Notes under the pieces: generated by a model
What the model saw: only the letters and a program-made list of their open reading frames with translations
What the model was told of the DNA's origin: nothing
Database searches by the model: none
Program-made: the position numbers and the translations under genes
Shown: one piece after another, positions 43,879 to 45,025 of the stretch
Layout: every line of letters starts with the position of its first letter
How positions within the stretch are numbered: the first letter of the stretch is position 1
From: an uncultured Alphaproteobacteria bacterium
GTDB taxonomy: Bacteria; Pseudomonadota; Alphaproteobacteria; Rs-D84
Direction: 5' to 3'
DNA: 64,000 nucleotides
Assembly (NCBI GenBank): GCA_949082785.1
Contig: CARVLU010000002.1
Span: forward strand, 4,993-68,992

Positions 43879-44109
43879 TTGTGTATGCCCAATGTCATGC
43901 AGCAATTATTTATAATGAACATTGAATCTCTGTTAAAAGAGTATGCTGCCTATCGCGCCTTTAACAAGTCCGACTGCGTCATCAATATGCGCATCCCCCG
44001 ACCCATTTTGGACAAGATAAAAGAACTGGCCGAACAGCAACATGTCCCGTATCAATCACTGATATCATCCGTGCTGTTTTCACTGGCCAATATCGAAGAT
44101 AAAAAATAA
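43879..44109 (+). CDS. BrnA-family (RHH) antitoxin-like protein, no BrnT partner
   Basis: C-terminal ..INMRIPRPILDKIKELAEQQHVPYQSLISSVL.. matches BrnA hallmark (..LRL....IK..A...gvPYQtLI..). Confidence 0.55.
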   Translation: MCMPNVMQQLFIMNIESLLKEYAAYRAFNKSDCVINMRIPRPILDKIKELAEQQHVPYQSLISSVLFSLANIEDKK

Positions 44110-44128
44110 CCCACCCCCCCCAGGATTC

Positions 44129-45025
44129 ATGAATACATTCGCCCAAATTTTTGAACAATTGAATAACACCCGGCGGACACGCGCGGACGGAACACAGTGC
44201 TGGCTGTATTCCGATTTGAACAATTTGTATAATATTCATCCGGGAAAATTGCGCAGCACCCAGTCCCAGGTGTTTTCGGCATTATTTGAAAACAGGGCCG
44301 CATACAACGCCGCCGCACGTCAATATCCCAACGACGAACGACCCATGATTCCGTTTTTTCATGACCACATCACAACCGTGTATCATGATTACGATATAAC
44401 AACGGGCCCATATCCCCAACACATCAAAAACGGACACGATTTGGAAATGTCCCGATATGCCTGTTGGGCATTGTTGGCGGCACAACCCGGCATTTCAACA
44501 ACATTTGGGGAAACATATTTTCTGTACCCCGACGCGGGGCCGGAACGTCTGGCGGCATTGACCCGTGAATTTATGCGTCTGCCACTGCGCCAGAATCTTT
44601 GCCGGGTTGAAAAAATCATGGGTGGCATTTTACACCGTCATGGAATTAAATTCCCGGTATTCAACCAAACGGTCCACCGCGCATTTTTTGATGGCATCGA
44701 CGCCACCACGTTAAAGGAATATTATGCCATCCCCATCAAACCATCCGACCCATTGGCCAATTATTTGGGCGCGGTGGCATTGATGGGGAAATACAATGCC
44801 CTGCGCGGGACAATCGATGAATATGACCGCCGCAACGGACCGGGGTCTGACACTTTGTTGCAAATCGCCGCGTACCAATTGCGCCAGCAACGCATTTATA
44901 TGATACAGAATTACCACACACGCCCCGAACGCAATATTCACATCACCCCCATTGCCAAGGTGAAAACCCACCAAAACCAGGCGATACGTTTACTGACCAA
45001 AAATTTCGGTCACATCACCAGATAA
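44129..45025 (+). CDS. Hypothetical protein, possibly DinD/BRO-N family
   Basis: 298 aa, 20 bp after the BrnA-like gene; ..EMSRYACWALLAAQPGISTTFGETYF.. recalls the DinD LSRYACY..G.TYF box (from memory, unverified). Confidence 0.4.
   Translation: MNTFAQIFEQLNNTRRTRADGTQCWLYSDLNNLYNIHPGKLRSTQSQVFSALFENRAAYNAAARQYPNDERPMIPFFHDHITTVYHDYDITTGPYPQHIKNGHDLEMSRYACWALLAAQPGISTTFGETYFLYPDAGPERLAALTREFMRLPLRQNLCRVEKIMGGILHRHGIKFPVFNQTVHRAFFDGIDATTLKEYYAIPIKPSDPLANYLGAVALMGKYNALRGTIDEYDRRNGPGSDTLLQIAAYQLRQQRIYMIQNYHTRPERNIHITPIAKVKTHQNQAIRLLTKNFGHITR

Follow-up and report, generated by a model that had tools for sequence, protein, structure and literature searches.

A near-invariant ribbon-helix-helix gene and its variable DinD-like partner in a candidate autorepressed operon of Candidatus Enterousia

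The 64,000-nucleotide stretch of contig CARVLU010000002.1 analyzed here (hereafter the window) carries 2 adjacent open reading frames (ORFs) on the forward strand, at 43879..44109 and 44129..45025, and their combination raises a question: is a small protein of antitoxin type, followed by a 298-amino acid protein resembling DinD of Escherichia coli, one half of a toxin–antitoxin pair or something else? The original prediction, which described both ORFs as they exist, took the first for an orphan BrnA-type antitoxin gene coupled to a DinD/Bro-N-like gene; some database copies of the small protein are labeled "BrnA antitoxin family protein." Both ORFs are genuine genes and not chance frames, since they are conserved over dozens of species under purifying selection and the 298-amino acid protein yields a confident AlphaFold2 model. 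Our tentative answer, to which we give slightly less than an even chance, is that the pair forms an autorepressed chromosomal operon in which a core ribbon-helix-helix (RHH) regulator controls an accessory DinD-family effector, all functional statements being drawn from sequence. The host is Candidatus Enterousia, an uncultured genus of the order Rs-D84: species representatives in GTDB that carry the locus are named Candidatus Enterousia or "Alphaproteobacteria bacterium," and the contigs with close or distant relatives of the pair come from gut metagenomes of humans, ruminants, and mice. Enterousia genomes are smaller than 1 Mb (PMC12306168).

The 2 genes evolve at very different rates. A scan of GTDB detected the small gene in 276 species representatives, and 80 loci (designated L with a number) were fetched through conserved peptide patterns of the small protein and ranked by identity, a sampling that inflates the conservation of that protein. 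Across these 80 species, the median identity to the window was 93% for the small RHH protein (89%–100%) and 93.5% for DnaN, followed by TolB (78%), DAC (76%), an acyltransferase (66%), and an SNase-like protein (61%), with the big DinD-like protein at 30% (22%–54%). In the closest species (L020; DnaN 99% and DAC 95% identical), identity is 100% for the small protein and 54% for the big one; identical small proteins thus accompany big proteins that are 53%–54% identical. When the window is compared with L001, the small gene differs at 30 nucleotides, every one of them a synonymous change, and nucleotide identity of the big gene is 64%. Ratios of nonsynonymous to synonymous substitution rates (dN/dS) by the Nei-Gojobori method for 13 close pairs, which are pairwise estimates with some dS values saturated, were 0.07–0.26 for the big gene, 0.02–0.09 for tolB, 0.007–0.025 for dnaN, and 0–0.03 for the small gene, whose value is raised to 0.085 in 1 very close pair by a single change. 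Pairwise identities of the big protein and TolB are correlated (Spearman 0.69), with the big protein falling much faster: TolB identities of 97%–98% correspond to 77% in the big protein, and TolB identities of about 90% to 37%–70%.

The divergence of the big gene is constrained throughout. In 20-codon windows, the ratio of nonsynonymous to synonymous differences per site (pN/pS) reached a maximum of 0.47 and no segment exceeded 1, so that positive selection on the big gene, considered as a candidate explanation, was rejected. The most variable segment, residues approximately 51–80 in the N-terminal domain (44279..44368, forward strand), has the lowest mean column conservation (0.19–0.25) and the highest pN/pS (0.39–0.47) and is prone to indels in the family alignment. 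Residues 101–150 are the most constrained, with a conserved core at a pN/pS of 0.12–0.17. As a separate observation, synonymous divergence is discordant between adjacent genes in some pairs: between the window and L020, dS is 0.28 for dnaN and about 1.35 for the small and big genes; between L069 and L078, it is 0.32 for tolB and 0.06 for the big gene; and L042 and L069 are likewise a discordant pair. Such discordance between neighbors suggests that homologous recombination has swapped alleles of the locus between related lineages.

The asymmetry extends to gene presence. Of 81 loci, counting the window with the 80 fetched, 46 have the big gene directly downstream of the small gene and 35 lack it. 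The small protein is equally invariant in both sets, in its N-terminus and its RHH domain alike. The small gene is therefore not an orphan in the sense of something left behind; its conservation matches that of dnaN in loci with and without the big gene, which speaks for a role independent of that gene. Two loci, L066 and L076, keep only about 58 C-terminal residues of the big gene, which documents its loss by deletion, and no other remnants were found in the species that lack it. On a neighbor-joining tree of TolB, the big gene occurs in deep and shallow branches and the species lacking it form about 7 or 8 groups, a count that is approximate because the tree is built from one gene; separate groups without the gene indicate repeated loss. 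Loci probed through the small protein cannot reveal a big gene without a small one, a gap partly filled by 7 look-ups started from the big protein: all 7 distinct family members, 98% to 24% identical to the window protein, have a PF12441 gene immediately upstream. Together with the 46 loci, these look-ups bear out the co-conservation of the pair. The big gene is thus accessory but functional, being intact in 46 of 81 loci, with a dN/dS well below 1 and a model at a predicted local distance difference test (pLDDT) value of 94.4; its rapid yet constrained evolution and recurrent loss fit a conflict or other accessory role.

Across Candidatus Enterousia, the pair occupies one fixed syntenic chromosomal site. 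The conserved order runs from an ABC transporter, DUF218, the acyltransferase, and, on the opposite strand, the SNase-like gene and tolB, to the RHH gene and, where present, the DinD-like gene; then come 2 small convergent genes, fructose-bisphosphate aldolase, sometimes an M16 peptidase, EF-P, pyrophosphatase, and dnaN. As had been predicted for the window, tolB is divergent and no BrnT-like ORF lies upstream of the pair; none occurs near it in the window, and tolB is divergent in every related locus that has upstream sequence. The GC content of the pair, overall and at third codon positions (GC3), is native. Neither gene was found in IMG/VR viral contigs, the big protein has 2 weak matches in 50,697 phage records and 2 in plasmid records, and in every species the locus is flanked by housekeeping genes and not by phage genes. 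The pair is vertically inherited and not mobile, because big-protein identity tracks TolB identity and the GC content is native; the compact island of mobile or defense character that the original prediction had envisaged is not what the locus turned out to be. Four contigs carrying the Enterousia locus (L021, L026, L038, and L090) were deposited as uncultured Muribaculaceae, Prevotella sp., and Bacteroides fragilis, one such mislabeled-looking record being a 716,531-bp "chromosome" (OZ246409.1); these oddly named contigs are probably mis-binned or mislabeled metagenome-assembled genomes.

The layout of the pair is that of an operon. The small ORF (43879..44109, forward) encodes 76 amino acids if its TTG start is used, and the ORF with these bounds does exist; the likely start is the ATG at 43885, which gives a 74-amino acid product beginning MPNV (43885..44109, forward). 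Both this ATG and an AGGAG ribosome-binding site located 7 nt before it (43873..43877, forward) are kept in all related loci, and the equivalent GTATAGGAG is conserved across species. The spacer to the big gene (44110..44128, forward) is C-rich, contains AGGA at 44122–44125, and measures 19 nt, correcting the 20 bp given earlier. A terminator scan called nothing between the 2 genes, and the 2 genes are read as one operon because the 19-nt spacer lacks a terminator. The big gene (44129..45025, forward) encodes a DinD-family protein of 298 amino acids, and in other species it begins about 4–35 nt past the stop codon of the small gene. Upstream, the likely start of the divergent tolB is at 43654, at the signal peptide MFKKLIALF. 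No paralogs were found in the window.

The small protein combines a recognizable DNA-binding domain with an N-terminus of its own. It matches the Pfam family PF12441 (CopG_antitoxin; 36.6 bits, cutoff 28) over the C-terminal half of the model only. In hhalign comparisons, the family profile aligned to 2 BrnA proteins encoded beside BrnT with a probability of 96.5% (E about 5e-10 and 1e-9), and the alignments cover the RHH, with 35%–40% identity over 40–48 residues that include the "..MRIP...PYQ.LIS.." signature. The C-terminal "..RIPRPILDKIKELAEQQHVPYQSLISSVL.." is thus part of a genuine RHH aligning to those of 2 BrnA antitoxins, and the PF12441 and hhalign results place a BrnA-type RHH domain at residues approximately 31–69. 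The BrnA resemblance noted at the outset holds for this domain but not for the gene order, the partner, or the N-terminus, whose first 25 residues could not be aligned to BrnA. The model for BrnA in NCBIfam (NF047399) gave 20.7 bits, below its cutoff of 60, and PF14384, proposed as a check, gave no match even at E values up to 10. Matches to Pfam Arc (E 0.003; residues 33–62 of the small protein align to Arc residues 10–39) and to phrog_582 (E 0.017) are weak. The nearest plasmid-borne relatives, all weak, are annotated BrnA, and 2 of them lie in toxin-first brnT-brnA pairs. An AlphaFold2 model of the monomer had a low pLDDT (69.6) and is missing the beta-ribbon, a feature of the dimer only, so that we used it for helix positions only; it places helices at residues 4–21, 39–52, and 56–69, the first of these being an invariant N-terminal helix. 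The sequence evidence indicates that the small protein is most likely a core DNA-binding regulator.

Although the C-terminal RHH with its PYQ.LIS signature is homologous and common to both systems, the pair departs from BrnT/BrnA in several ways. In the canonical system, brnT precedes and overlaps brnA, whereas here the RHH gene comes first, under a promoter of its own, the gene after it encodes an unrelated 298-amino acid partner, and there is no BrnT. BrnT/BrnA is also mobile and patchy, whereas this RHH gene is chromosomal, core, and nearly invariant. Both parts of the module, the BrnA-type RHH and the DinD/Bro-N protein, belong to known families; the RHH plus DinD-like arrangement itself was not found in the literature or annotations that we searched.

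The likeness of the big protein to DinD and Bro-N holds at the superfamily level. Aligned by hhalign, a 66-member family profile matched E. coli DinD with a probability of 98.2% (E 5e-14) over 251 columns, corresponding to DinD residues 8–273, and the PADLOC model PDC-S13 matched the big protein (E 1.8e-16) and 64 of the 66 family members. PDC-S13, a phage-defense candidate of PADLOC, is the DinD family, since E. coli DinD itself scores 402 bits on this model. The big protein is only about 18% identical to DinD, and the curated NCBIfam DinD model (PRK11525; E 6e-6) gave 25.8 bits against a cutoff of 242, covering residues 101–239 only. The motifs D-x3-SRYAC, TYF, R-x3-LR, MG, and PE are common to the family and DinD; the SRYACW...TYF box, named as a DinD/Bro-N feature when the locus was first described, indeed aligns to "LSRYACY...QTYF" of E. 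coli DinD. The conserved core runs from D104-x3-SRYACW (residues 108–113) to TYF (129–131), at 44450..44521 on the forward strand, and D104, R109, Y130, and F131 are nearly invariant in the 66-member alignment. None of the 66 members matched any Pfam model, Bro-N (PF02498) included; the N-terminus of the big protein nevertheless aligns to DinD residues 8–105, the region that holds the Bro-N domain of DinD (Pfam Bro-N at residues 10–105). A match to phrog_8036 had an E value of 8e-10. By these sequence comparisons, the big protein is a remote full-length homolog of DinD, on a distant branch and not an ortholog.

With the family alignment, AlphaFold2 gave a model at pLDDT 94.4 and a predicted template modeling score (pTM) of 0.89, consisting of an alpha/beta N-terminal domain that resembles Bro-N and includes a long beta-hairpin (residues approximately 1–120) and an all-helical C-terminal domain (residues approximately 122–293); E. 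coli DinD has the same two-part architecture. Foldseek retrieved no solved structure at an E value below 0.2 for this model, and its matches in BFVD were weak and limited to viral antirepressor, regulatory, Bro, and KilA-N proteins. Finding relatives required an exhaustive profile search: a word-index search gave 3 homologs, and 8 with a profile, whereas the exhaustive profile search of 1.84 billion representative proteins gave 134 clusters, of which 73 fell below 1e-10 and almost all are about 300 amino acids long. One ENA protein of 441 amino acids (P0002) is 95% identical to the big protein over its first approximately 157 residues and unrelated in the remainder, which carries motifs like the C-terminus of a UvrD/AAA-type helicase; this protein most likely reflects chimeric assembly instead of a natural fusion.

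DinD has been known for decades as an SOS gene, and we know of no solved structure, partner, or settled function for it. As cited in PMC4849656, Uranga 2011 describes DinD as binding and destabilizing RecA filaments on DNA. A DinD/RhuM gene has been described inside a type I restriction-modification system (PMC9881135), and PDCs are untested candidates defined by their embedding in BREX, DISARM, or type I restriction-modification systems (10.1101/2024.01.29.577857); our literature search found no paper naming PDC-S13. Two further PADLOC models recognize E. coli DinD: Specificity_I (717 positions) covers the full-length protein at 380 bits, and PDC-S05 hits the N-terminal 120 residues. It follows that some genomes carry DinD-like modules fused to specificity subunits of type I restriction systems. 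In E. coli K-12 and in 4 sampled plasmid-collection records from other phyla, dinD stands alone without an upstream RHH gene, whereas the big gene here has one.

The region in front of the small gene supplies a candidate site of control. A sigma-70 promoter at 43824..43851 (forward; TTGACA, a 16-nt spacer, TATAGT, and a TG extended −10) agrees with the consensus at 11 of 12 positions and ranks first among the promoter-like sites of 43600–45500; each of its hexamers is at least 90% conserved among 82 aligned species, and the approximately 110 nt before the ATG are near-identical between the window and L001, although synonymous sites of the small gene differ by 33%. Superimposed on it is an array of GTA trinucleotides phased at 12 bp (43797..43880, forward), with 7 units in the window (GTACTGACAGCG, GCATTTACAAAT, GTATTGACAAAC, GTCAACACAATG, ATATAGTCAGTT, GTAAGGACCCCT, and GTATAGGAGATT), such that the −35 box, the −10 box, and the ribosome-binding site all fall within GTA units. 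Relative to GTATTGACA, GTA recurs at −24, −12, 0, +12, +24, +36, +48, and +60, in 39 to 80 of 80 species per position; at least 6 uninterrupted phased units occur in 43 of 80 species, and L083 has 8 successive 12-mers each beginning with GTA. Further runs of at least 4 units numbered 6 in about 969 kb of flanking DNA, at least 4 of them in the same intergenic region, and the window holds no other phased GTA array. With none elsewhere in the window and almost none in 969 kb of related loci, no regulon can be defined. The array is a candidate operator for the RHH protein, as we infer from its position and phasing.

The control expected of a DinD protein under SOS leaves no comparable mark: the operon promoter has the GTA array in place of a LexA-type box, the alphaproteobacterial consensus GTTC-N7-GTTC being absent from 43655–43884 and present window-wide at chance counts. 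A 16-nt inverted repeat (43721–43736 and 43809–43824, ATTCATTTGAAAATGC and GCATTTACAAATGTAT, 88% complementary) stretches across the intergenic region between tolB and the RHH gene, ending at the −35 box. A few species also have short phased runs on the opposite strand, approximately 80–100 nt upstream of the small gene, so that the array may reach toward the promoter of tolB.

RHH regulators and antitoxins commonly repress their own promoters, and several RHH regulators act on arrays of short repeats: omega of pSM19035 on heptads, ParG on 8 ACTC boxes, and MetJ on tandem metboxes. The arrangement of a small RHH gene behind a repeat-embedded promoter is alike here, whereas the unit is 12 bp and initiated by GTA, so that the likeness is one of architecture only; by this analogy, it suggests cooperative binding of several dimers and autorepression. 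A similar organization is found in the immI region of phage P22 (Pant-arc-ant), where an RHH autorepressor lies directly upstream of a protein of about 300 amino acids, the 2 genes are co-transcribed, and the operator overlies the promoter; Arc, however, binds a single palindromic operator, as opposed to a phased direct-repeat array, and the Enterousia locus has no phage context.

In the autorepressed operon that we tentatively favor, the near-consensus sigma-70 promoter would drive the RHH gene and then, 19 nt downstream, the DinD-like gene. The RHH protein would bind cooperatively to the 12-bp-phased GTA array over its own −35 and −10 boxes, 5' untranslated region, and ribosome-binding site, and this binding would repress the operon and hold the DinD-like protein at a low level. 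The latter would be a dispensable, fast-evolving accessory effector that, by its homology to DinD, probably binds DNA or nucleoprotein, for example RecA filaments or incoming foreign DNA. Control would be transcriptional, with no need for dedicated protein–protein neutralization. Transcriptional control is favored because the RHH gene and the array are unchanged where the big gene is gone and because identical RHH proteins serve partners that are only 53% identical.

Several points weigh against this proposal. The activity assigned to the DinD-like protein is taken from remote homology, the binding of the RHH protein to the array is likewise something we infer, and the copy of the array in the window is degenerate, with GTA at 43797, 43821, 43857, and 43869. 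Unlike the context that defines PDC-S13, no restriction-modification, BREX, or DISARM genes adjoin the locus, and the selection of loci by small-protein peptides exaggerates the very conservation on which the proposal draws. Other points resemble a toxin–antitoxin pair: the big gene was never seen without the small one in the 7 look-ups started from it, and the small-first layout with a larger gene close behind also fits type II systems. Bro-N proteins of a pneumococcal prophage inhibit growth if overproduced (PMC4257102), and the D-SRYACW-TYF face conserved in the big protein could be a docking surface for the invariant N-terminal helix of the small one.

These last points lead to the alternative that survives best, a type II toxin–antitoxin or abortive-infection pair in which the DinD-like protein is a toxin neutralized through the N-terminal helix of the RHH protein, the RHH protein also represses its own operon, and species without the big gene keep an orphan antitoxin. 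A two-gene operon with a small DNA-binding protein first is the usual form of such systems, and the RHH domain of BrnA/CopG_antitoxin type, the 4–35-nt spacing in antitoxin-first order, and the standing of DinD as a PADLOC defense candidate all suit it, as does the toxicity of overexpressed Bro and Ant proteins (PMC4257102). So does the RHH gene found directly upstream of every big gene looked up, the converse being untrue. We nonetheless regard this alternative as unlikely. In type II systems, the antitoxin is usually the less conserved protein and the 2 partners co-vary, whereas here the small protein is frozen at 80%–100% identity and its partner ranges over 22%–54%, with no co-evolution; the N-terminus that should do the neutralizing is as constrained as the rest in the 35 loci without a big gene, and leftover antitoxins are not expected to be conserved at the level of DnaN. 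Type II systems are also mobile and variable in location, whereas this locus is vertical and held at a single syntenic site, and small genomes generally lack toxin–antitoxin systems (PMC2701414). In the only tested Bro-type pairs, moreover, neighboring regulators failed to neutralize toxicity (PMC4257102).

The nearest described concept is the "toxin–antitoxin-like" Xre-Bro pair, which also sets a small DNA-binding regulator beside a Bro-N-containing protein of about 240–300 amino acids. Makarova, Wolf and Koonin (2009) described Xre-Bro modules as regulatory systems resembling toxin–antitoxin pairs (PMC2701414), and Chan et al. (2014) found that in Streptococcus pneumoniae the Xre-Bro regulator is not a classical neutralizing antitoxin (PMC4257102). 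The regulator of those pairs is an Xre helix-turn-helix protein, the C-terminus of the partner is Ant/KilAC or ORF6C, and the pairs are phage-borne; the pair here differs in having an RHH regulator and a DinD-type C-terminus and in being chromosomal, syntenic, and of one genus. An RHH counterpart of Xre-Bro would be a repressor/antirepressor-like switch, with the DinD-like protein binding the RHH protein or competing with it on DNA and so tuning the regulon of this core regulator. Weak structural matches to antirepressors and regulatory proteins of phages, along with the Bro-N-like domain, point this way, as do the Bro-Xre complexes that Makarova et al. proposed to regulate a third component (PMC2701414), the binding by E. 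coli DinD of another protein's nucleoprotein filament (Uranga 2011, as cited in PMC4849656), and a role of the RHH protein beyond its operon. Such a switch seems to us rather improbable, the partner being lost in about 40% of species with the RHH protein and promoter array visibly unchanged. An invariant repressor should also fix the interface of its partner, yet the big protein diverges outside the core in common with DinD, and P22 Ant, tried as a homolog of the big protein, proved not to be one (hhalign probability 0.1%; Ant has P22_AR_N and P22_AR_C).

Much less probable is a domesticated relic of an arc-ant-type prophage immunity region, with an Arc-like repressor followed by an antirepressor. 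The layout is like that of P22 Pant-arc-ant (a 53-amino acid RHH protein, then a 300-amino acid protein), and the weak Arc and phrog_582 matches of the small protein, the phrog_8036 match of the big one, and the weak antirepressor matches in BFVD agree with it; the absence of flanking phage genes and of IMG/VR occurrences, the mere 2 weak matches among phage records, the nonhomology of P22 Ant, and the native GC do not. It is scarcely credible that the big gene has no function and is decaying toward loss as a passenger: it is the fastest-evolving gene of the neighborhood, repeatedly lost and reduced to deletion remnants in L066 and L076, but its frame is intact in 46 of 81 loci, dN/dS is 0.07–0.26 in every pair with every segment well below 1, and the family retains a set of near-invariant residues and a very confident AlphaFold2 model.

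Downstream of the pair, the window lineage has features of its own. A perfect 12-bp stem-loop (45066..45091, forward; inverted repeats I1–I4), 41 nt past the stop codon of the big gene, has no T-run and so was not called by the terminator scan; it may mark the 3' end of the transcript, and in L001 a classical GC hairpin with a T-run follows the big gene. A nested palindrome at 45031–45181 (outer arms 45042–45060 and 45163–45181, inner arms 45102–45118 and 45137–45153), which encloses this stem-loop, looks like a lineage-specific element of the repetitive extragenic palindrome (REP) or miniature inverted-repeat transposable element (MITE) kind, the same GTCATTGCGAGC...GGCAATCCAG element being present in about 3 tandem copies after the big gene in L001. 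Between the big gene and dnaN lie 2 copies of a 119-nt repeat (45722–45840 and 45970–46088), and an element of about 70 nt with self-complementary ends (TGGTTGGGGG...GTGAATATATTGAATAA...CCCCCAACCACC) has 3 copies (45324–45393, 45885–45954, and 46139–46208), one of which, just upstream of an XRE gene, is common to the window and L001. No Rfam family came near its gathering score in 43600–46500.

That XRE-like gene (45443–45670; 75 amino acids) has weak matches to HTH_31 and phrog_955 and a promoter-like site of its own at 45212–45240. Among about 100 related loci, it occurs only in the closest relatives of the window (79% identity in L020, and a visible gene start in L001), so that the XRE gene and the palindromes, once counted with the pair as an island, are specific to this lineage and lie outside the conserved module. 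In most Enterousia, the 2 convergent genes, aldolase, sometimes M16 peptidase, EF-P, and pyrophosphatase precede dnaN; this block is missing in the window lineage, which has the repeats, the XRE gene, and a 50-amino acid ORF without a family match (46252–46404) in its place, and the replacement indicates local rearrangement.

The pair reverses the usual toxin–antitoxin picture: the small partner is frozen and always kept, and the large one is fast-evolving and often lost, which shows that an antitoxin-type annotation can mask a core regulator. For the DinD/PDC-S13 family, the locus offers an entry point that combines a candidate regulator, a candidate operator, a confident structural model, and a natural series of presence/absence and sequence variants, and it is among the few regulatory circuits readable from sequence in Candidatus Enterousia, a genus whose biology is almost unknown. 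A further-reaching proposal, which we think improbable but worth stating, is that the pair founds an RHH plus DinD-like family in which a toxic or abortive-infection effector is held in check by an RHH protein turned indispensable, near-frozen regulator in genomes of less than 1 Mb. Were this true, DinD/PDC-S13 would gain a defined partner, a cis-element in the 12-bp-phased array, and a conflict-type function, and a toxin–antitoxin-like module would have been kept, and repeatedly half-lost, in genome-reduced bacteria, where such modules are normally absent.

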